Positions 20,474 through 58,715 of a stretch of DNA of 64,000 nucleotides are shown piece after piece. A program made the translations under genes and the position numbers. This DNA is from a phage, in the sequence record OZ346182.1; one strand, written 5' to 3'. Within the stretch, counting starts at the first letter, position 1. The number at the start of each line of letters is the position of its first letter. The notes beneath the pieces are model-generated. The model saw only the letters and a list, made by a program, of their open reading frames with translations. It was not told the origin of the DNA and did not search any database.

Positions 20474-22708
20474 ATGATTAAGACAATTAAAAAATCAAAC
20501 GGTACAGTAGTAAGCTTTGACCCAGAAAGACTGAATAAGTGGGCATCATGGGCAGATAAACGTGGGATTATCTGGTCAGAAGTCACTATGGAAGCCATGA
20601 AACGTGTCTATGAGGGTTGCACTACAAAAGAGATGCACCAAGCCATGATTGATGTTTGTGTTGATAAACAAACTCAAGAGTACTCAGATATGGCTGGACG
20701 ACTGCTTTTGGGTATTATCTACAAAGAAGCCTTTGGAGGCTTTACTAAGGTTCCTACGCTGGTTACCTTCGTTAAAAATATGGAGAGAGCAGGACTTTGG
20801 GAGAAGATGGACTATTCACAGGAAGAGCTTGAATATCTGCAAGGTTACATCGTACACTCAAAAGATATCTCTTACGGCTATGCAGTCTTGAAACAGTTCA
20901 GAGACAAGTATGGTATCCGTGATATTAAAACTGGAAGACTTTTTGAGTCACCACAATTTATGTTTATGGGTATGGCTATGAAAGCCTTTGAGAAGCAACC
21001 AAAGCACCGTAGACTGCAAGATGTTATCAAGCTGTACACTTACCTATCCGACCTGAAGATTAACGCTCCTACGCCTTATTTAAATGGTTTAAGAGCAACT
21101 AAATCAGGTTATGCGTCATGCTGTTTGATTAAGGCAAATGATACTGCTGAGTCTCTCGGTATTGCTGCAAAGGTTGCTTATGATATGACCACAAAGCAAG
21201 CTGGTATTGGTATGCTGATGGAGACACGTACTATTGGTGATGGTATCCGTCAAAACACTATTGAGCACATGGGTAAACTACCTTATTACAAGCTTGTACG
21301 TTCATCTGTAGAGGCAAACAAACAGAAGAGCCGTGGTGGTTCAGCTAATAACTTCTACACCGCTCTAGACCCGCAGATTGAAGACTTACTGCGTTTGAAG
21401 CACCCTACAACGGTTCCTTCTAAACGTATTAATGAGATGGACTACTCATTCGGCACAAACGATTATTTCTGGCAGTGTGTTCAGTATGATACAGATTGGT
21501 TGCTATTCTCGTACAAAGATGCACCAAAACTCTATGACATGTTCTACACAGCATCTGCTGATGAGTTTGCTATGGCAGTTGGTCACGCAGTACACTCAGG
21601 AGTTAAGCACAGACGAGTTAAGGCTCGTGAAATTGCTAAGCTGTTTATTCAACAGCGTTATGCTACAGGACGTGTGTATCCATTCTTCACTAACAATGCA
21701 AACACACATACACCATTTAAAGAGCCTTTGAAGATGTCAAATCTTTGTATGGAAATTGTGTTGCCAGTGTATGGTTTTGAGAAAGAGACAGACCTTTACA
21801 GAGACGATGCTGTGAAAGAGGATGGTGAGGTGGCTCTTTGCTTCCTAGCTAGTTTGGTTGCAGGGAGAATTTCAGAAGATGAATACGCTGACGTTGCTTA
21901 TTATGCTCTTGCAATGGTTGACTCCGTTATTGACCTTATGGATTATCCGTATCCGTCGATGCGTAACCATGTTCAGAAGCGTCGTTCTGTTGGGATTGGC
22001 CTTACAAATGTGGCTCATTACCTTGCGAAGAACTACGTGAACTACTCTTCACGAGCAGGTAAAACGAAACTTCATGAACTTGCAGAGATGCACTCTTACT
22101 ATCTGCATGAAGCTTCTCTGAGACTTGCTAAAGAGCGTGGTGTTCCAGAGTACATGAAGTTCACTAAGTATCCTGAAGGCTGGGTTCCTCCAAAGACAGC
22201 TAACAAGAAGATTGATGAAAAGCATGATGCAAAACTACGATATGATTGGGATGACTTAGCACAACGTATCAAAGAAAATGGTGGAATCCGAAACTCTGTA
22301 TTAGAAGCTTACATGCCTAATGAGAGTTCTTCACTAGCAACTAATACGACAAACGGCTTGTACCCAATTCGTGACTTTATTTTAACTAAAAAGTCTGCAA
22401 CTGGTAACGTACTGTTTATTGTTCCAGATTATGAAGAGTTGAAGTATGTCTATGAAATTGCTTGGAATATTGACACCTTTGATATGATTGATTGTTATGC
22501 AATTGTTCAAAAGTTCACTGGTCAAGCTATCTCTTCAGACTTCTATGTTGACTATGCAAAGTCTAAGAAGGTATCATTGGCTCAAGCTCTGAAGTACATG
22601 ATTTATGCCAACTCGGTAGGTATGAAAACAATGTACTACCTTAACAGTCGCATTGGTGTAGGTAAATCTGCACTGCAAGATGCTTATTGCGAGGGTTGTG
22701 GTGTTTAG
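20474..22708 (+). CDS. nrdA: ribonucleotide reductase class Ia large subunit
   Basis: 744 aa; ATP-cone N-terminus; NLCMEIV active-site motif; C-terminal CEGCG. Confidence 0.95.
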   Translation: MIKTIKKSNGTVVSFDPERLNKWASWADKRGIIWSEVTMEAMKRVYEGCTTKEMHQAMIDVCVDKQTQEYSDMAGRLLLGIIYKEAFGGFTKVPTLVTFVKNMERAGLWEKMDYSQEELEYLQGYIVHSKDISYGYAVLKQFRDKYGIRDIKTGRLFESPQFMFMGMAMKAFEKQPKHRRLQDVIKLYTYLSDLKINAPTPYLNGLRATKSGYASCCLIKANDTAESLGIAAKVAYDMTTKQAGIGMLMETRTIGDGIRQNTIEHMGKLPYYKLVRSSVEANKQKSRGGSANNFYTALDPQIEDLLRLKHPTTVPSKRINEMDYSFGTNDYFWQCVQYDTDWLLFSYKDAPKLYDMFYTASADEFAMAVGHAVHSGVKHRRVKAREIAKLFIQQRYATGRVYPFFTNNANTHTPFKEPLKMSNLCMEIVLPVYGFEKETDLYRDDAVKEDGEVALCFLASLVAGRISEDEYADVAYYALAMVDSVIDLMDYPYPSMRNHVQKRRSVGIGLTNVAHYLAKNYVNYSSRAGKTKLHELAEMHSYYLHEASLRLAKERGVPEYMKFTKYPEGWVPPKTANKKIDEKHDAKLRYDWDDLAQRIKENGGIRNSVLEAYMPNESSSLATNTTNGLYPIRDFILTKKSATGNVLFIVPDYEELKYVYEIAWNIDTFDMIDCYAIVQKFTGQAISSDFYVDYAKSKKVSLAQALKYMIYANSVGMKTMYYLNSRIGVGKSALQDAYCEGCGV

Positions 22709-24580: not shown

Positions 24581-25777
24581 ATGAACAAAGTACAGATTAT
24601 TAAAAAGAATGGCTCACTTGAAGAACCTGATATCAAAAAAGTTTTAGCAGCAGTCACAAAGTCAGCTAACAGAGTTGGTTATAAAGAGCTTCCACCAGAT
24701 GTTACTCAAGCTCTTGAGTCAGCATTTATGAGGATTCTGGTAAAGTCCACTAAGCAGAATAATTTGCTAATTTCGGTAAATGATATTCACAGTATTGTTG
24801 AGGGTGCTTTGGCAGAAGTCAATCACGAGATTTATGAGTCTTACTCAACATATAGAAATTACCGTAAAGAGGTTGCTCAAAATTGGGATGAACTCTACCA
24901 GAAGACCAAAGATACACTCTTCTTAGGCGACCGAGAAAACGCTAATTTTGACAGCAGTTTAATTTCTACAAAAGGCTCAATTATTCGTGGTTACCTGACT
25001 AAAGAAATCTTTAAACAGTACCATTTAACACCAGAGGAACTTGAAGCCATTGAAAAAGGATTTATCTATATCCATGATTTAAGAGACCTAATTTTTGGTG
25101 GTATCAACTGTTGCCTGTTTGACATTGGTAAAGTCCTGAAAGGTGGCTTTGAAATGTCTGGCATTGAATATTGTGAACCGAAGTCTGTGCTGTCAGCCTT
25201 ACAGGTTATTGGTGATGTAGTTCTTTCAGCAACTGCACAGCAATTTGGTGGCTTTACTTTAGCAGAGATTGATAAGGTACTTGTACCGTATGCTAAGAAG
25301 TCTCTACGTTACCATGCTGAAAAAGCAACAGCTTATGGTATTCCTAAAGAACATTACCACAACTATGTCATGGAGCAGCTACAGATTGAATTAACTCAAG
25401 GTTTTCAGTCTCTTGAAATGAAGCTCAATACTGTGCCTTGTAGCCGTGGTGATTTTGCATTCACAACTTTGACATTCGGGTTACTTGACTCAGATATGTC
25501 TAATGAAGATAACCGACTGCAATACATGATTGCGAGCACTCTCCTAGATGTTCGTATGAATGGACAAGGTAAGAGCAAGAAACCTGTTGTATTCCCTAAA
25601 CTGGTTTATATTTATGACCAGAAGAGACACAATGAGAATATCTGTCAAGGCCACCTGTACAGTAAAGCTATTGAGTGTTGCTCTAAAGCTATGTATCCAG
25701 ATTTCTTAAGTGTATCTGGACATGGTGCTGTAGCAGAGGCTTTTGAGCGTTCTGGCAAGGTAATTTCCCCGATGGGT
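24581..25777 (+). CDS. nrdD: anaerobic ribonucleotide reductase NrdD, exon 1
   Basis: ATP-cone N-terminus; exon ends ...VISPMG (GGU) immediately before the intron. Confidence 0.9.
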
Positions 25778-26093
25778 TAACAAGCTCTATAGCTCATCTA
25801 AAACGTGCCTAAACAGGGAAACTCTACAGATGTAGACAATCCTGTGCTAAATGATGTACGATGTAAGAAACTATACAACATAGGAGTCTTACATGCCAAA
25901 TAACTTCGAATATGAGTTTGAATACATCTAAATGCCGAACGACTAACCGTGATGAATGTAGCGGTGTAGGGTCAAGCGACTCGAAATGGTACGCTACTTA
26001 GAAATAAGTAGAAGATATAGTCTGGACTTACTGGCGACAGTAAGCAGCTTGAATAAAGCGGGGTAAGCTTAGCGAACTTACTTGAACAACAAG
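25778..26093 (+). ncRNA. group I intron in nrdD (316 nt, no ORF)
   Basis: Exon 1 ends in U, intron ends in G; splicing restores conserved PMG-CRAFL; contains AAACAGGGAAACUCUACAGAUGUAGACAAUCCUGUGCUAAAUG (very like T4 td intron), R-like GAACGACUAA and S-like AAGAUAUAGUCU. Confidence 0.85.
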
Positions 26094-27041
26094 TGTAGAG
26101 CATTTTTATCACCATACCATAACGAACATGGTGAAGAGTTTTATGTAGGTCGTGCTAACATTGGTGCTGTATCTTTGAACTTACCAATGATTTATCAGTA
26201 CACCAAAGAGAATGGCTTAGATTTCTGGAAAGAGCTTGATAAGTACCTAGAAATGATTCGCAGCTTCCACAAGAAACGTTACGAAATGATTGCTAATATG
26301 CCAGCAAGTTCTAACCCTCTTGCATTCACACAGGGTGGTCTGTACAAAGGGAATAAGAAACCTACTGACAAGGTTGGCTGGGATATCGTGAAGTCCTTCA
26401 CAGCTTCTTTTGGGGTTACTGCGCTTGATGAGCTATCTGTTCTTGCTGAAGGTAAACGACTCCATGAAGTTGGAAGCTGTAGTTTTGCATATGATGTTCT
26501 GGCATACATTAACATGAAAACTGAAGAGTTTAAGAACGAAGATGGCTTCTTGTATGCGGTATATGGCACTCCAGCAGAATCACTTTGTGGAACTCAGTTA
26601 AAACAGTTCAGAGATATGTTTGGCGTTATTAAAGGTGTCTCTGACAAGGAATACTTTACAAACAGTTTCCATATGAATGTTGCAGCAGACATCTCACCAT
26701 TTGAGAAGCAGGACTTAGAAGAGCCATTCTTCCATATCTGTAGAGGTGGTAGAATCCAGTATGTAAGGGTAGCTAACCCAGAAAACTTAACAGCACTTAA
26801 AAGTTGTATTACAAGAGGGATGTTGAAAGGTTTCTATCAGGGGCTTAACTTTGACTTAGCAATCTGTGAACATTGTGGTAACAGACCAAAGGCTGATGTT
26901 GAAGAATGTGAGGTTTGCCATTCACATGATATCTCTGTGATTAACAGGGTGTGCGGGTACTTGTCATTCACAAAAATTAAAGGTCAGTCTCGAATGAATG
27001 ACGCTAAGATGGCAGAAATTAAGGATAGGGTTTCTATGTAA
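26094..27041 (+). CDS. nrdD: anaerobic ribonucleotide reductase NrdD, exon 2
   Basis: Begins CRAFLSPY; glycyl-radical motif RVCGYL; zinc ribbon CEHCG...CEVC. Confidence 0.9.
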   Translation, partial: CRAFLSPYHNEHGEEFYVGRANIGAVSLNLPMIYQYTKENGLDFWKELDKYLEMIRSFHKKRYEMIANMPASSNPLAFTQGGLYKGNKKPTDKVGWDIVKSFTASFGVTALDELSVLAEGKRLHEVGSCSFAYDVLAYINMKTEEFKNEDGFLYAVYGTPAESLCGTQLKQFRDMFGVIKGVSDKEYFTNSFHMNVAADISPFEKQDLEEPFFHICRGGRIQYVRVANPENLTALKSCITRGMLKGFYQGLNFDLAICEHCGNRPKADVEECEVCHSHDISVINRVCGYLSFTKIKGQSRMNDAKMAEIKDRVSM

Positions 27042-29421: not shown

Positions 29422-29433
29422 ACAGATACTATA

Positions 29434-29463
29434 AGGGAACTGTAAAGGTTCCCTTTTTATTTT
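29434..29463 (+). terminator. rho-independent terminator
   Basis: AGGGAAC-TGTAAAG-GTTCCCT-TTTTATTTT. Confidence 0.6.
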
Positions 29464-29585
29464 GGAGATGATATGTATCTGTCAAACCTAAAACGTTCTG
29501 CTGCAATGTCAGTGTTAAGACTTAGCTTTGAGGAACGTCAAGAGTTCATTGACTCCACCAATACGACCCCTCAAACTCCAATCAC

Positions 29586-29858
29586 ATGATTCTCTGGAAT
29601 CGTGAAAGTACTCGTGAAAGAGTACTATTCCGTTATTACCCACACTACACTATAGATAACCTGTATGAATGTTTTGTTGTGAAGAACACCATTGCAGTGC
29701 TCAATAAGCTTTGTAGATACACAGGTAGTCAATCCTTCACATTAGGCCACCACAAACCTGTTACAAAAGGTGGTGAACATCACTGTGCAAACTGGTTTAT
29801 TCAGACTAAAGCTGATAACCAGAAGCAAGGAGATAACCTTTTAAGTGCCCTAAGATGA
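29586..29858 (+). mobile_element. small HNH endonuclease-like protein (start uncertain, possible frameshift with upstream 38-codon ORF at 29473)
   Basis: GHHKPVTKGGEHHCANWFIQTKADNQKQGDN resembles HNH core. Confidence 0.45.
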
Positions 29859-29978
29859 CCTATGAAGAGCAAGAGAGATATATCAAAAATAATATGCCAG
29901 ATGTGCTTGACAACAACTATACAGATTTGGCAATATCTCTCCTGTTGAAGTTCGAGACAGTTTATAGGGCAACTTATA

Positions 29979-30257
29979 ATGGCTAAAGAAAAGTGGGAGA
30001 TTTTACCATTAGTCAGTGAAGGAGGTAATGGTTGTGAAATGTACATGATACGTGGTCATGTTCCAGAGCCAATTGCACTTGAGATGGTAAACAACTTTAC
30101 AGATGGTTCTTACAAAGACTTAGGCGAACCAACTGTCAAGCAACAATGGGTTAAACCTGTACCAGACAGCACAGGTAACTGTAGTGTACTTTATCACGTT
30201 GTAGACCCTGCAAAATGCAAATCTGCAATGGCAGTAACAAACGTAACTTTTGATTGA
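29979..30257 (+). CDS. hypothetical protein
   Basis: 92 aa ORF. Confidence 0.35.
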   Translation: MAKEKWEILPLVSEGGNGCEMYMIRGHVPEPIALEMVNNFTDGSYKDLGEPTVKQQWVKPVPDSTGNCSVLYHVVDPAKCKSAMAVTNVTFD

Positions 30258-31150
30258 GAGAGAAAACTATGAAAACTGTTATTGAAGCCGTCATCACCGC
30301 TCAAGAGAAATTCTTCCACACAGAAAAATTTAATATCATTCAATTCCCATCTGGAGAAATTGGTGGAAACTTCTCTGAAGATTTTGTTAAGTTTACTGAG
30401 CGTAATGCCGGTAAGATTGATAATGTTATAATTACTGTACAGGGATATGACAAAGATACACTGTTTGCATTAGCTTTGGCTAAGGATGCCGTTGACAGTC
30501 TTGTTCCCCAGAAATCAGCGATGAAAACCGTTGTTTTCGGGTTCTTACCAAATGCTCGATATGACCGCCACATGTTCAAAGGTGATGCAGCAGCACTGAA
30601 AGTCTTTGCCAACCTAGTTAATGCAATGGGTTTTGATGCAGTATGTGCTCTTGACCCTCATAGTAATGTTGCAGAAAACTTATTTAAGTGCTTTCAAAGC
30701 ATGAAGCAAAAAGATGTGGCAGTACACTTTGCAAGTGACCCACGCATTGATTTCTTGGTAGCCCCAGATGCAGGTGCAGCTAAGAAGACTGAAGATACCG
30801 CTAAAGAGGTGGATAAACCGTATATCACAATGTCTAAGGTGCGCAATCTTAAGACTGGAGAAATCACTGGTATGCGAATCCTAGACGATGTTGATTTGAC
30901 CGATAAAACTGTCATGATTCTTGATGATATCTGTGATGGTGGTCGAACCTTCGTAGAGGCAGCTAAACACCTACGTGAAGCAGGTGCAAAACGTGTGGAA
31001 CTCTATGTAACTCATGGTATTTTCTCTAAAGGTGTTGAAAACTTACTTGACAACGGTATTGACCATATCTACACTACAAACACCTTAGGTGAAGCTAAAG
31101 ACCGTGGCTTAACACATTACGCCCAAGTTACTGTAGCAACCATTGATTGA
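30254..31150 (+). CDS. prs: ribose-phosphate pyrophosphokinase (PRPP synthetase)
   Basis: 298 aa; PRPP-binding motif VMILDDICDGGRT. Confidence 0.85.
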   Translation: MREKTMKTVIEAVITAQEKFFHTEKFNIIQFPSGEIGGNFSEDFVKFTERNAGKIDNVIITVQGYDKDTLFALALAKDAVDSLVPQKSAMKTVVFGFLPNARYDRHMFKGDAAALKVFANLVNAMGFDAVCALDPHSNVAENLFKCFQSMKQKDVAVHFASDPRIDFLVAPDAGAAKKTEDTAKEVDKPYITMSKVRNLKTGEITGMRILDDVDLTDKTVMILDDICDGGRTFVEAAKHLREAGAKRVELYVTHGIFSKGVENLLDNGIDHIYTTNTLGEAKDRGLTHYAQVTVATID

Positions 31151-31199
31151 AACTTTATATGGGCTTGAAAGCCCCACTTTGAGAGAGAGAGATTAAAAG

Positions 31200-32981
31200 A
31201 TGACTAAATCACTTTACGCAGTACCAGCAGGTCTTAATGCAGATGCTTACAAGGCATCACATATATATCAGTATCCAGATGCTACGCAATATCTTATGTT
31301 GAACCTGACACCACGTAGTGATAAATGGTTTAACAGCCCTTTGGCAATTGACGGTGTAGTGGCTTTTGGTATTCAACGTTTCGTTAAAGATTACTTGATA
31401 GACCACTGGAACGCCACTTTCTTTGAACGTGATAAAAAAGAAGCCATTGATGAAATCTTAGAAGTCATGAATGGTGTTCTGGGTAAAGATGCTATCGGTC
31501 GAGAGCACTGGGAAGCACTTCACGACTTAGGTTATCTACCAGTTGAAGTATACGCTGTAGAAGAAGGTACAGTTGTCCCTATGCGCGTCCCAATGATTGT
31601 CTTCCAGAACACTGTTTCAGGCTTCCATTGGGTAGCGGGGTATCTGGAAGATGCTTTCTCTGCTGAGATTTGGAAGGCTTGTACCATTGCAACTATTGCA
31701 TTGCACTACAAACGTATCTGTAAGAAGTGGGCTGACCTTACTTGTGACAACGACTTGCATTTGCCTTATCAGTGCCATGACTTTGCTATGCGTGGTATGT
31801 CCGGCTTTACTGATGACGCATTTAACGCTGTAGGCCACTTAACCAGCTTTAAAGGAACTGATAGCTTCCCTGCTGTGTATACGGCTAAACGAATCTATGG
31901 ACAGTCCTACCCAATCTCTGATATTGGTAGCTCTGTACCAGCCACTGAGCACTCTGTAATGTGTGCAAACATTGCTTGGGAAGGTGGTAATGAGTTGATT
32001 GAAGAAGAAAGACGCTTTAAAGGTGAGTTACAAACCTTCCGTCGTTTCTTAACAGAAACTTACCCAACTGGTATTGCAAGTGTTGTTTCAGACACTTATA
32101 ACTTCTGGAGAACTGTGTCAGAAATTTTACCAGCACTTCGTAAAGAAATTATGGAACGTGATGGCAAACTGGTAATTCGTCCTGACTCTGGAGACCCTGT
32201 ACATATTGTCACAGGTTATAAAGCAATCCACTTAGAATGTGCTAAAAAGGCTTATTACGAGCACCTAAGCAAGCTGGAAGCCAGTGACACAATGTTGAAT
32301 GCTGTTCTGAACATGAAGCTTGAAAATATCAACTATGGTATTGCTGGATGGCTACTGTCAGAAGGCTACGAAATGGTTGTTGACAGAGAAGACTTTGAAG
32401 TTGCTGATACAGTGATGTTGAAAAATGCTTATATGGTTGGTTCTGCAAACGTTGTAACACGTCCTGTAGCTGAGATTGATGGAGCTATTAAGACACTGTA
32501 CAACATCTTCGGAGGGACTATTAACTCTAAAGGGTTTAAGGTACTGGATGAGCACATCGGCCTTATCTATGGTGACTCTATCACGCTGGAACGTGCAAAC
32601 GAAATCCTGAAGCGTCTGTATGAAATGGGTTTTGCAAGCTCTAACGTAGTGTTTGGTGTAGGCTCTTACACTTACCAGTACATGACTCGTGACACCTTTG
32701 CATTTGCTGTCAAAGCAACTCTTGCAAGCATTGGTGGTAAAGAGATTATGCTTGCAAAAGACCCTAAAACAGATAGTGGTGTTAAGAAATCTGCCTTTGG
32801 TGGTGTAGCACCTATGTGGGATGGTGATAAGCTGAAAGCTGTAGATGGCTATGGATTCCAGAGTTTTGCAGATGTACTTGACCACCAAGCTTGTGCTTTA
32901 CGTTTAGTCTTTAGCGACTCTGAGCAGTTCGGTTATACAACTCTTGGAGATATTCGAAATAATATTGACAAGCAGCTTTAA
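31200..32981 (+). CDS. nadV: nicotinamide phosphoribosyltransferase (NadV/NAMPT-like)
   Basis: N-terminal LNADAYKASHIYQYP matches the NAMPT DSYKxTHxxQYP signature. Confidence 0.8.
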   Translation: MTKSLYAVPAGLNADAYKASHIYQYPDATQYLMLNLTPRSDKWFNSPLAIDGVVAFGIQRFVKDYLIDHWNATFFERDKKEAIDEILEVMNGVLGKDAIGREHWEALHDLGYLPVEVYAVEEGTVVPMRVPMIVFQNTVSGFHWVAGYLEDAFSAEIWKACTIATIALHYKRICKKWADLTCDNDLHLPYQCHDFAMRGMSGFTDDAFNAVGHLTSFKGTDSFPAVYTAKRIYGQSYPISDIGSSVPATEHSVMCANIAWEGGNELIEEERRFKGELQTFRRFLTETYPTGIASVVSDTYNFWRTVSEILPALRKEIMERDGKLVIRPDSGDPVHIVTGYKAIHLECAKKAYYEHLSKLEASDTMLNAVLNMKLENINYGIAGWLLSEGYEMVVDREDFEVADTVMLKNAYMVGSANVVTRPVAEIDGAIKTLYNIFGGTINSKGFKVLDEHIGLIYGDSITLERANEILKRLYEMGFASSNVVFGVGSYTYQYMTRDTFAFAVKATLASIGGKEIMLAKDPKTDSGVKKSAFGGVAPMWDGDKLKAVDGYGFQSFADVLDHQACALRLVFSDSEQFGYTTLGDIRNNIDKQL

Positions 32982-32994
32982 AAGTATATGATAA

Positions 32995-33020
32995 GAGGCT
33001 CCTACGGGAGCCTTTTTAAT
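32995..33020 (+). terminator. rho-independent terminator
   Basis: GGCTCC-TACG-GGAGCC-TTTTTAATTT. Confidence 0.6.
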
Positions 33021-33034
33021 TTCTGGAGAAGACT

Positions 33035-33370
33035 ATGAAAATCAAAGAAATGAACATCAACATTGTCTTAGAAGAACGTTGGGAGAACATCAAGAAGCCT
33101 GAAGATGGTAAAAAGTTCCTTAACAAAATTTTAGTAGCAGCTAAAGAAGAACTGACTGGCAAGATTGCAGCAGCAATCACAATAAAAATCTGTGTAAAAG
33201 GTCTTCCACAACATCACCAATTTGCACTTGACGAGTTTAAAGAAAGCTTCTACAATCCAAACAAACAGATGCTTGAAAGTAACTTTGCAGTGTCTACAAG
33301 TATCGTCCATGACAGAAGCTTTATCCTTTACAAGAATATGAGAGGTGAGTCATGCAAGCATATTGGATAG
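33035..33370 (+). CDS. hypothetical protein
   Basis: 111 aa ORF. Confidence 0.35.
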   Translation: MKIKEMNINIVLEERWENIKKPEDGKKFLNKILVAAKEELTGKIAAAITIKICVKGLPQHHQFALDEFKESFYNPNKQMLESNFAVSTSIVHDRSFILYKNMRGESCKHIG

Positions 33371-58631: not shown

Positions 58632-58708
58632 CTCTGTTTAGCTCAGCTTGGTAGAGCGTTCCGTTTGGGGCGGTAAGGCCGGAGGTTCAAGTCCTCCAAC
58701 AGAGACCA
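58632..58708 (+). tRNA. tRNA-Pro (anticodon UGG)
   Basis: Cloverleaf with GGTTCAAGTCC T-arm, anticodon loop TTTGGGG, CCA encoded. Confidence 0.7.
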
Positions 58709-58715
58709 AATTAAT

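Follow-up and report, generated by a model that had tools for sequence, protein, structure and literature searches.

A phage genome that carries, side by side, a gene resembling prs and a gene resembling nadV raises the question of which compound the two products make together, and of whether they can make it on their own. The first-pass annotation of the stretch analysed here (64,000 nt of sequence record OZ346182.1, hereafter the window) had taken the pair for a PRPP synthetase and an NMN-forming enzyme, whose pathway the host or another gene might finish. The same Pfam-based prs/Nampt reading was the starting point of Osterman et al., who refuted it (bioRxiv 10.1101/2024.02.11.579819) in the work that discovered NAD+ reconstitution pathway 1 (NARP1) in the Bas63 gp79-80 operon (bioRxiv 10.1101/2024.02.11.579819). 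We find, with little room for doubt, that the gene pair is the NARP1 operon of a Felixounavirus. It is an already known system and brings no new biology.

The locus and its relatives

The two genes, adps and namat, are intact, adjacent open reading frames in the same orientation, 49 nt apart, as the first-pass annotation had described them, and the DDICDGGRT and nadV-type N-terminal motifs that it had pointed out are both there (Table 1). The adps frame also opens at a TTG (30254..31150) that overlaps the upstream gene's stop; judged from the letters, translation more probably begins at the ATG at 30269, which has GAGAGAGAAAACT before it and is the start annotated in Bas63. Some relatives hold an HNH endonuclease gene of about 470 bp in the compared stretch, and their adps-namat gap is wider by the same amount.

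The window belongs to a Felixounavirus genome and is collinear with positions 22422..87100 of coliphage Bas63 (JohannRWettstein), at about 82-96% nucleotide identity. Its closest relative is phage momo (98.7% nucleotide identity), which figures in published supplementary tables with a Namat marked 'Adps-associated' and an Adps whose cluster has the Bas63 protein as its representative. With Bas63 the window shares genus, gene order, spacing, the lengths of both proteins, their clamp and catalytic residues, and the flanking genes (the gp77 and gp78 homologues and rIIA); it differs in that Bas63 gene 81, directly 3' of namat, is missing, and in that the upstream gp77 homologue carries two apparent 1-nt deletions, within 29474..29986. 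Adps departs from Bas63 gp79 by three substitutions (I9V, V88I, A285G) and Namat from gp80 by twelve (A19S, S20G, I22V, D27S, Q30E, L34F, V295I, N367D, N378S, I441T, A537S, Q563P). None of these 15 substitutions, which we call conservative, falls on a catalytic or clamp residue, and we infer from the sequences that the window proteins would act like gp79 and gp80.

The gp77 homologue, the gp78 homologue, adps and namat make up a probable transcription unit, as read from the sequence (Table 1). The small gp78 homologue, which has no Pfam match, is probably co-transcribed with adps and namat. The association of the two enzymes extends to other phages: among 80 IMG/VR loci with a Namat relative, 77 have an upstream flank and could be assessed, and a Prs-family gene lies within 4.4 kb in all 77, mostly abutting, so that the pairing cannot be put down to chance.

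Table 1. Features of the adps-namat locus and of the Macro-domain gene (positions in the window)
Feature	Coordinates	Strand	Remarks
Terminator-like hairpin	29433..29455	+	Upstream edge of probable transcription unit; predicted, consensus match only
Bas63 gp78 homologue	29979..30257	+	92 aa; phrog_4726 (unknown function); stop overlaps adps TTG
adps	30269..31150	+	293 aa, Prs-like; predicted ADP-ribose pyrophosphate synthetase; 290/293 identical to Bas63 gp79
Adps catalytic hairpin K190-V-R192	30836..30844	+	K190 aligned with SPbetaL1 K162 and ICP1 K185
Adps donor ('PP') loop DDICDGGRT	30923..30949	+	Residues 219-227; quoted in the first-pass annotation
adps-namat spacer	31151..31199	+	49 nt; small hairpin (GGGCTTGAAAGCCC) and ribosome-binding-like run GAGAGAGAGAG, as read from the sequence
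namat	31200..32981	+	593 aa, Nampt-like; predicted nicotinamide ADP-ribose transferase; 581/593 identical to Bas63 gp80
Namat N-terminal motif DAYKASHIYQYP	31242..31277		Residues 15-26
Namat selectivity-clamp loop (SCL) SDKWFNSPLA	31317..31346	+	S40-D41-K42-W43
Namat lineage-specific insertion	32217..32480	+	88 residues, Y340-D427, between RPDSGDP and FGG segment
Namat selectivity-clamp helix (SCH) motif GSYTYQYMTRD	32661..32693	+	G488-D498, includes Y490 and Y494
Terminator-like hairpin	32993..33016	+	10-bp stem then T run; 12 nt past namat stop; predicted, consensus match only
Macro-domain protein, Bas63 gp95 homologue	40463..41248		Annotated 'putative phosphatase'; 7.5 kb downstream of the pair (about 15 ORFs)

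Adps is not a canonical Prs

Domain searches place the two proteins in the expected superfamilies: Pfam finds Pribosyltran and Pribosyl_synth in Adps, and NAPRTase and NAMPT_N in Namat, while PHROGs assigns them to phrog_619 (E 1.7e-99) and phrog_448 (E 3.8e-202), respectively. A search of PDB sequences with Adps returned canonical Prs entries only (best E 1.6e-18) and, in the PDB copy used, matched none of the Adps structures of Vibrio phage ICP1. We rejected Adps as a canonical Prs. The Pribosyltran_N domain (PF13793), which scores 179.5 bits in E. coli Prs, is absent from Adps at E <= 0.01, and Adps falls below every NCBIfam Prs equivalog cut-off (best score 114 bits, where 296 would be required); the one model that it does pass, at 139 bits for a threshold of 113, is TIGR01251, which covers a broad subfamily. 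Moreover, Adps stops where the Adps of Vibrio phage ICP1 stops, E. coli Prs running about 20 residues further, and in the alignment it is devoid of the C-terminal alpha11-alpha12 module of Prs. The loss of this module has been described as a defining signature of Adps (PMC13586617). E. coli Prs, 28% identical to the window Adps, thus differs from it both in its Pribosyltran_N signature and in its C-terminal regulatory or filament module.

The residues of the active site tell a similar story. The structure of ICP1 Adps has been solved in apo, substrate and product states (PMC13586617), and we mapped its residues by alignment to the ICP1 gene from GenBank. F26, R97, H131, D167 and K190 of Adps align with F18, R87, H121, D161 and K185 of ICP1, and D219, D220, I221, C222, D223, T227 and F228 with D212-D216, S220 and F221. 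The DDICD stretch is identical in the two proteins, and the counterpart of the whole loop in E. coli Prs is DDMIDTGGT. The window protein therefore resembles ICP1 Adps in its acceptor groove, donor-loop residues, catalytic lysine and absent alpha11-alpha12, but at 31% identity two ligand contacts are not kept in their columns: ICP1 F92 faces M102 (with F103 adjacent) and F223 faces E230. The lysine is critical in both characterised enzymes, since activity is abolished by K162A in SPbetaL1 Adps (bioRxiv 10.1101/2024.02.11.579819) and by K185A in ICP1 Adps (PMC13586617).

Overall identity is of little help here. Adps shares 31-33% of its residues with the SPbetaL1 and ICP1 enzymes, both biochemically characterised, and the pairwise values of 32% to SPbetaL1 Adps and 28% to E. 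coli Prs cannot by themselves split Adps from Prs, so our call rests on the near-identity to Bas63, the family signatures, the gene linkage and the failed Prs equivalogs. By analogy with the characterised enzymes, we infer that the acceptor of Adps would be ADP-ribose, not ribose-5-phosphate.

Namat carries an adenine clamp

Namat is 47% identical to the Namat of Bacillus phage SPbetaL1, of which crystal structures are available (PMC12774641); in the PDB it is matched best by 9w5w and 9w5x (E ~5e-129), whose residue numbering is that of the published SPbetaL1 Namat. In the pairwise alignment D15, Y17, F195, R198, D221, H251, R327 and D329 are invariant, their SPbetaL1 counterparts being D13, Y15, F189, R192, D215, the catalytic His, R306 and D308, and these core residues, together with G458-D459, align with NAD+-contacting residues of the SPbetaL1 enzyme. 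The two systems are also alike in their organisation as a two-gene Adps-Namat operon, in the catalytic lysine of Adps (K162, here K190) and in a conserved SCH motif.

Namat differs from its SPbetaL1 homologue in the SCL and in two insertions. It has been shown that a Lys or Tyr as third SCL residue leaves adenine stacking to the fourth residue, Bas63 being an example (PMC12774641), and that the stacking residue is otherwise a third-residue Arg (PMC12774641). The SCL of the window Namat is longer than that of SPbetaL1 and has K42/W43 in place of R40. The insertions comprise 15 residues after the catalytic His and 88 residues after RPDSGDP; the latter is missing in SPbetaL1 Namat, and the corresponding segment is 49 to 120 residues long in related loci. 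The SCH motif, of the GS[YF] type, occurs in 80/80 related IMG/VR loci, whereas Xanthomonas Nampt reads GGALLQKVDRD at this position, without the aromatic clamp residues. In other respects the window pair resembles E. coli Prs and the human and Xanthomonas Nampts, with the same folds and the same presumed succession of a pyrophosphoryl transfer from ATP and a displacement of pyrophosphate by nicotinamide.

A two-enzyme route to NAD+

The pathway that we propose would begin with the defence itself. SIR2-HerA, DSR1, DSR2, type I Thoeris and SEFIR are among the many bacterial systems that break NAD+ down to ADP-ribose and nicotinamide. Adps would then act on the terminal ribose of ADP-ribose, placing the beta-gamma pyrophosphate of ATP on its 1'' hydroxyl; this would give ADP-ribose pyrophosphate (ADPR-PP) and AMP. 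Namat would let nicotinamide displace the pyrophosphate of ADPR-PP, in a Nampt-type reaction that yields NAD+ directly. An adenine-binding clamp formed by K42/W43 and Y490/Y494 would make Namat favour ADPR-PP over PRPP. NMN would not be an intermediate, nor would an adenylyltransferase step be needed.

This scheme leans on biochemistry from distant homologues. The Bas63 proteins were kept from in vitro assay by the poor purification of gp79 (bioRxiv 10.1101/2024.02.11.579819); reactions in vitro and structures come from the SPbetaL1 and ICP1 proteins only (bioRxiv 10.1101/2024.02.11.579819; PMC12774641; PMC13586617), and the enzymology would extend to the window proteins through homologues that are 31-33% (Adps) and 47% (Namat) identical. 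The purified SPbetaL1 enzymes convert ADPR and ATP to ADPR-PP, and ADPR-PP and nicotinamide to NAD+ (bioRxiv 10.1101/2024.02.11.579819).

Could the pair nonetheless be a true PRPP synthetase and nicotinamide phosphoribosyltransferase, making NMN that the host NadR, the PncC route or another phage gene turns into NAD+? The Pfam labels Pribosyl_synth and NAPRTase/NAMPT_N, the GenBank names prs and nadV, and the scores above threshold for TIGR01251 and, with Namat, for NF006629 (471 bits against a cut-off of 405) would all fit. Furthermore, SPbetaL1 Namat in vitro accepts PRPP and yields NMN if ADPR-PP is absent (bioRxiv 10.1101/2024.02.11.579819; PMC12774641), so a minor NMN side flux is possible. 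However, when given both donors Namat produced NAD+ only (bioRxiv 10.1101/2024.02.11.579819), and SPbetaL1 Adps, active on ADPR, gave no product in a Prs-type assay (bioRxiv 10.1101/2024.02.11.579819). The adenine clamp of Namat points the same way, as do the two Prs features that Adps lacks, the C-terminal module and the signature of the N-terminal domain. In vivo, Bas63 protection was kept in a host deleted for pncC and nadR (bioRxiv 10.1101/2024.02.11.579819), and NMN is for this reason not the intermediate. For Bas63 this explanation is already largely refuted, and we consider it very improbable for the window. The identification of a PRPP synthetase and an NMN-forming enzyme is overturned by the Bas63 and SPbetaL1 work, on proteins 99%/98% identical and homologous, respectively, to those of the window.

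The role of the module against NAD-depleting defences, which the first-pass annotation had also proposed, is supported by the Bas63 deletions. Without genes 79-80, Bas63 plates about 20-fold less efficiently on SIR2-HerA (bioRxiv 10.1101/2024.02.11.579819); the two genes partly preserve NAD+ (bioRxiv 10.1101/2024.02.11.579819), and ADPR-PP (m/z 720.010) was seen only with wild-type Bas63 plus the defence (bioRxiv 10.1101/2024.02.11.579819). An independent genome-wide Bas63 screen found plating losses of 10^4-10^6 on Sir2-HerA for delta-g79 or delta-g80, restored by complementation.

The neighbourhood of the pair could suggest instead a housekeeping role, independent of immunity, in which it would serve phage DNA synthesis by enlarging the pools of PRPP and pyridine nucleotides: nrdA, nrdB, nrdD and nrdG lie just upstream, and thymidylate synthase and DHFR genes are found elsewhere in the window. 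Yet ADPR-PP appears only when the defence is present, and the delta-g79 and delta-g80 phenotypes of the genome-wide screen are those on defence-carrying hosts. In addition, type II Thoeris, which does not deplete NAD+, is not abolished by co-expressed SPbetaL1 NARP1 (bioRxiv 10.1101/2024.02.11.579819). We give such a role scarcely any credit.

No missing adenylyltransferase

The first-pass annotation had recognised no NMNAT in the window, and our motif and domain searches bear this out. A six-frame regular-expression search of the window gave no GxFxPxHxGH or Nudix box, and HxGH matches only in open frames of at most 55 codons. A Pfam scan of 117 window ORFs in three sets (for the first set the best 25 of 35 families, where matches weaker than about E 6e-4 could escape) gave no CTP_transf_like or NUDIX match and no PnuC or NadR homologue, and the remainder of the Bas63 genome has no annotated NMNAT, Nudix, PnuC or NadR gene. 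The idea that the host or another gene must complete the pathway finds no support: the two-enzyme NARP1 pathway ends in NAD+, and therefore there is no missing step and no NMNAT gap.

The same searches bear on a NARP2-type arrangement as in Vibrio phage KVP40, where Nampt would use host PRPP to make NMN and a phage NMNAT/Nudix enzyme would convert it to NAD+, the Prs-like gene merely boosting PRPP. NARP2 phages do exist, the window does encode a Nampt-family protein, and KVP40 NARP2 serves the same purpose with a homologous Nampt-fold enzyme. But its route, by NadV and the bifunctional NMNAT/Nudix protein NatV, runs via PRPP and NMN and requires an adenylyltransferase, which was found neither in the window (117 ORFs, one of the three sets limited to the best 25 of 35 families) nor in the Bas63 annotation. 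According to the published analysis, Nmnat is encoded by 94% of phages with a KVP40-type Nampt, these Nampts make up a clade of their own and come without Adps partners, and the two pathways were found together in no phage; besides, the clamp motif of the window protein is of the Namat type, not the Nampt type. Its probability seems to us close to nil. NARP3, which consists of a PnuC-like transporter and a NadR-like bifunctional enzyme (PMC13464706), was rejected, as no PnuC or NadR domains were found among the 117 ORFs within the limits of the Pfam scan given above.

Annotation and prediction

The NARP1 assignment has practical consequences. The pair predicts resistance to NAD+ depletion of the SIR2, TIR and SEFIR types, not necessarily of the aRES type, which is of use for phage therapy and host-range prediction. 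It also calls for caution in annotation: Pfam, NCBIfam and most GenBank records label such pairs prs and nadV or NAPRTase, and a sequence-only reader or pipeline will therefore deduce a pathway with a missing NMNAT. NARP1 can be called from sequence by the GS[YF]xYQ[YF]xTRD motif of Namat, the DDICD-type loop and truncated C-terminus of Adps, and the adjacency of the genes.

A Macro-domain protein outside the operon

Some NARP1 systems include Adpp, a Macro-domain ADPR-1''-phosphate phosphatase; in this NARP1-AP variant the gene order in Vibrio phage Gary is Adps-Adpp-Namat (bioRxiv 10.64898/2026.01.28.702374). The definition places Adpp at most two genes from Adps or Namat (bioRxiv 10.64898/2026.01.28.702374), and the sole Macro-domain gene of the window lies about 15 ORFs away, outside the operon. 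Felixounaviruses are absent from the published NARP1-AP list (bioRxiv 10.64898/2026.01.28.702374). A homologue of Bas63 gp107 (45424..45966), put down as weakly Tpt1-like, showed no sequence similarity to any solved structure.

The window nevertheless resembles Gary in encoding the same two core enzymes and a Macro homologue of Adpp. This protein is 27% identical to Gary Adpp (pairwise E 2e-13) and has an extra C-terminal domain of 100 residues. It is conceivable, though rather doubtful, that Felixounaviruses run NARP1-AP in trans, the Macro protein freeing ADPR from ADPR-1''-phosphate or other conjugates and feeding it to Adps. If this were so, protection would reach aRES-type defences, and the share of NARP1 phages with Adpp, published as 15%, would be an underestimate.

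Identity and genomic origin of the gene pair

The two plus-strand genes, both intact in the ORF reading of the window, are NARP1 (NAD+ reconstitution pathway 1), an already known system of which this pair is in effect the type example. They encode a Prs-like ADP-ribose pyrophosphate synthetase (Adps) and a Nampt-like nicotinamide ADP-ribose transferase (Namat). As the first-pass annotation had noticed, the genes are adjacent and carry the motifs DDICDGGRT (residues 219-227 of Adps) and DAYKASHIYQYP (residues 15-26 of Namat). The adps ORF opens upstream at TTG 30254, overlapping the stop codon of the preceding gene; the ATG at 30269, which GAGAGAGAAAACT precedes, is the likelier start, and Bas63 (Escherichia phage JohannRWettstein) is annotated likewise. 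Pfam recognizes Pribosyltran and Pribosyl_synth in Adps and NAPRTase and NAMPT_N in Namat, and PHROGs places them in phrog_619 (E 1.7e-99) and phrog_448 (E 3.8e-202), respectively.

Coordinates of the gene pair and of other features of the window
Feature	Coordinates	Strand	Size	Remarks
nrdD, split by intron	24581..25780 and 26082..27041			anaerobic ribonucleotide reductase gene
Group I intron	25663..26044	+		Rfam RF00028, 54.6 bits, E 6.7e-13; inside nrdD
Terminator-like hairpin	29433..29455			consensus match only
Bas63 gene 77 homologue	29474..29986	+		two single-base deletions
adps	30269..31150	+	293 aa	ATG start
adps-namat spacer	31151..31199		49 nt	uninterrupted; small hairpin
namat	31200..32981	+	593 aa	
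Namat insertion	32217..32480	+	88 residues (340-427)	between RPDSGDP and FGG segment
Terminator-like hairpin	32993..33016			consensus match only
Junction lacking Bas63 gene 81	33033..33037			
Macro-domain protein	40463..41248	+	261 aa	PF01661, E 1e-7, N-terminal
25-tRNA gene cluster	58632..63556	+		small ORFs interspersed

The whole window runs collinear with Bas63 (MZ501086) from 22422 through the genome end and over the first 222 nt of that genome, the nucleotide identity being about 82-96%. It thus spans practically all of the non-structural half of a Felixounavirus genome; the rest of Bas63 is its structural module. Adps matches Bas63 gp79 at 290 of 293 residues and Namat matches gp80 at 581 of 593. 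A megablast of 30000..33100 returned 259 phage records, nearly all from Felixounavirus (Escherichia, Salmonella and Shigella phages), with phage momo on top (98.7%). The supplementary tables of published NARP1 work mark the momo Namat as 'Adps-associated' and place the momo Adps in a cluster represented by the Bas63 protein. GenBank GU169904.1 (Staphylococcus phage SA1, 147 kb) also holds this Felixounavirus segment, 95% identical across the full 3.1 kb, which suggests a mixed or chimeric assembly; its Adps was entered in the published NARP1 table as Staphylococcus phage SA1.

Chemistry of the pathway

NARP1 was discovered by Osterman et al. in the operon of Bas63 genes 79-80, starting from the hypothesis, which they then refuted, that Prs makes PRPP, Nampt makes NMN and the host finishes (bioRxiv 10.1101/2024.02.11.579819). 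Bas63 lacking both genes plated about 20-fold worse on SIR2-HerA and did not preserve NAD+, and ADPR-pyrophosphate was seen only with wild-type phage plus defence. Purified Adps of the Bacillus phage SPbetaL1 gave no product in a Prs-type assay and turned ADPR plus ATP into ADPR-PP, from which purified SPbetaL1 Namat made NAD+ with nicotinamide; given both PRPP and ADPR-PP, Namat yielded NAD+ as sole product (same preprint). A knockout screen across the Bas63 genome, carried out independently, recorded plating losses of 10^4-10^6 on Sir2-HerA for delta-g79 or delta-g80, regained by complementation. Judged by these Bas63 and SPbetaL1 experiments, the purpose first proposed for the pair, restoring NAD+ against defence, stands, and the chemistry through PRPP and NMN falls.

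So does the gap that had been perceived in the pathway, because NARP1 ends in NAD+ after two steps. The observation behind it was correct: no real ORF of the window carries an NMNAT or Nudix signature, and Pfam found no CTP_transf_like, NUDIX, PnuC or NadR in the 117 ORFs (for the first set, among the best 25 of 35 families). These negative results, together with the structural nature of the remaining Bas63 genome, thus exclude NARP2 (the Nampt and NMNAT route of Vibrio phage KVP40) and NARP3 (the PnuC and NadR route). An IMG/VR scan for relatives of the window Namat gave 80 loci, every one with a GS[YF]-type clamp motif, and a Prs-family gene lay nearby in all 77 with upstream flank.

Residues distinguishing Adps and Namat from Prs and Nampt

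We aligned the window Adps with those of Vibrio phage ICP1, SPbetaL1 and ABurr and with E. coli Prs. K190 corresponds to ICP1 K185 and SPbetaL1 K162, both essential by mutation. Among the acceptor and donor residues named from the ICP1 structures (PMC13586617), R87, H121, D161 and D212-D216 correspond to R97, H131, D167, D219, D220, I221, C222 and D223, and S220 and F221 align with T227 and F228, whereas the contacts F92 and F223 are unconserved at their aligned columns. These matches identify DDICDGGRT as the Adps donor loop. The window protein ends where ICP1 Adps does, about 20 residues short of E. coli Prs; absence of the alpha11-alpha12 module that closes the Prs C-terminus has been called a defining Adps signature (PMC13586617). 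A canonical Prs can be ruled out, since Pfam finds no Pribosyltran_N in the window Adps (179.5 bits in E. coli Prs) and the protein falls below every NCBIfam Prs equivalog cut-off.

The PDB entries that Namat matches best, 9w5w and 9w5x (E about 5e-129), are numbered as in the published SPbetaL1 Namat. All NAD+-contacting core residues of SPbetaL1 Namat are kept in the alignment (D15, Y17, F195, R198, D221, H251, R327, D329, G458-D459). The selectivity clamp defined on Namat (PMC12774641) is found as GSYTYQYMTRD (G488-D498, including Y490 and Y494), where Xanthomonas Nampt has GGALLQKVDRD. Another clamp element, a variable loop giving a further stacking residue, is S40-D41-K42-W43, the same Lys-then-stacker arrangement as described for Bas63 in that paper. 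The window Namat differs from the SPbetaL1 enzyme by an extended clamp loop, by 15 residues inserted behind the catalytic His, and by the 88-residue insertion that the crystallised protein lacks. This last site is an insertion hotspot, the segment ranging from 49 to 120 residues in related phage Namats; several marine or metagenomic lineages carry there a different recurrent module with NRYDKQYYF. PDB 9ke8/9keo may lie at the divide between Namat-type and Nampt-type enzymes.

Curated models still give both proteins (30269..32981) wrong names. Indeed, misleading names persist in records because Namat passes the equivalog model NF006629 'nicotinate phosphoribosyltransferase' and Adps passes TIGR01251, a broad subfamily model and the only one it satisfies; no Adps- or Namat-specific model matched among NCBIfam or Pfam.

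A distant Macro-domain protein

In 15% of NARP1 phages the Macro-domain ADPR-1''-phosphate phosphatase Adpp lies within two genes of the operon, and with Adpp (NARP1-AP) NARP1 overcomes aRES defence (Osterman et al. 2026, bioRxiv 10.64898/2026.01.28.702374). The sole Macro domain found by Pfam in the window belongs to the homologue of gp95 of Bas63, a protein whose annotation reads 'putative phosphatase'; the gene lies 7.5 kb from the operon. The Macro domain shares 27% identity over its full length with Adpp from Vibrio phage Gary, a validated one (pairwise E 2e-13), and 29% with ABurr gp179, the Adpp equivalent, which, unlike the window gene, sits between adps and namat. Homologues lie within 6 kb of NARP1 in 12 of the 80 related loci, several within the operon. 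The published NARP1-AP list contains no Felixounavirus. A specific link is disfavoured by the spread of the family, which turns up in 2536 phage records, T4-like phages included. Among curated matches, DarG and TARG1-type macrodomains rank best; in place of the GGDW of Adpp proteins the window protein reads GGLDP, and it carries an extra C-terminal domain of about 100 residues. We consider it unlikely that the protein acts as Adpp in trans; it could supply NARP1, undo ADP-ribosylation, or do both.

Neighbourhood of the operon

The two terminator-like hairpins, known from consensus matches only, probably bracket a four-gene unit of the gp77 and gp78 homologues, adps and namat. Bas63 gene 77 is a reported counter to retron Ec67 (PhageMaP screen). 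Relative to Bas63, its homologue here has single-base deletions near 29555 and 29850, one of them within a C run, and is broken by them across three frames (with ORFs at 29586..29858 and 29855..29986): a pseudogene, or else a sequencing error. In Bas63 the namat terminator is directly followed by gene 81 (345 bp, hypothetical), which the window lacks, and the junction is a variable slot beside the anti-defence operon.

The adps-namat spacer is about 470 bp longer in some Felixounavirus relatives (loci L010, L011, L012, L016, L029 and L030). The annotations of LinBro, ekra and ECML-1 place an HNH homing endonuclease inside the compared stretch, which is extended there by a similar length. The nrdD intron of the window has no homing-endonuclease ORF, whereas that of Bas63 has bas63_0068. 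The tRNA gene cluster is as in Bas63.
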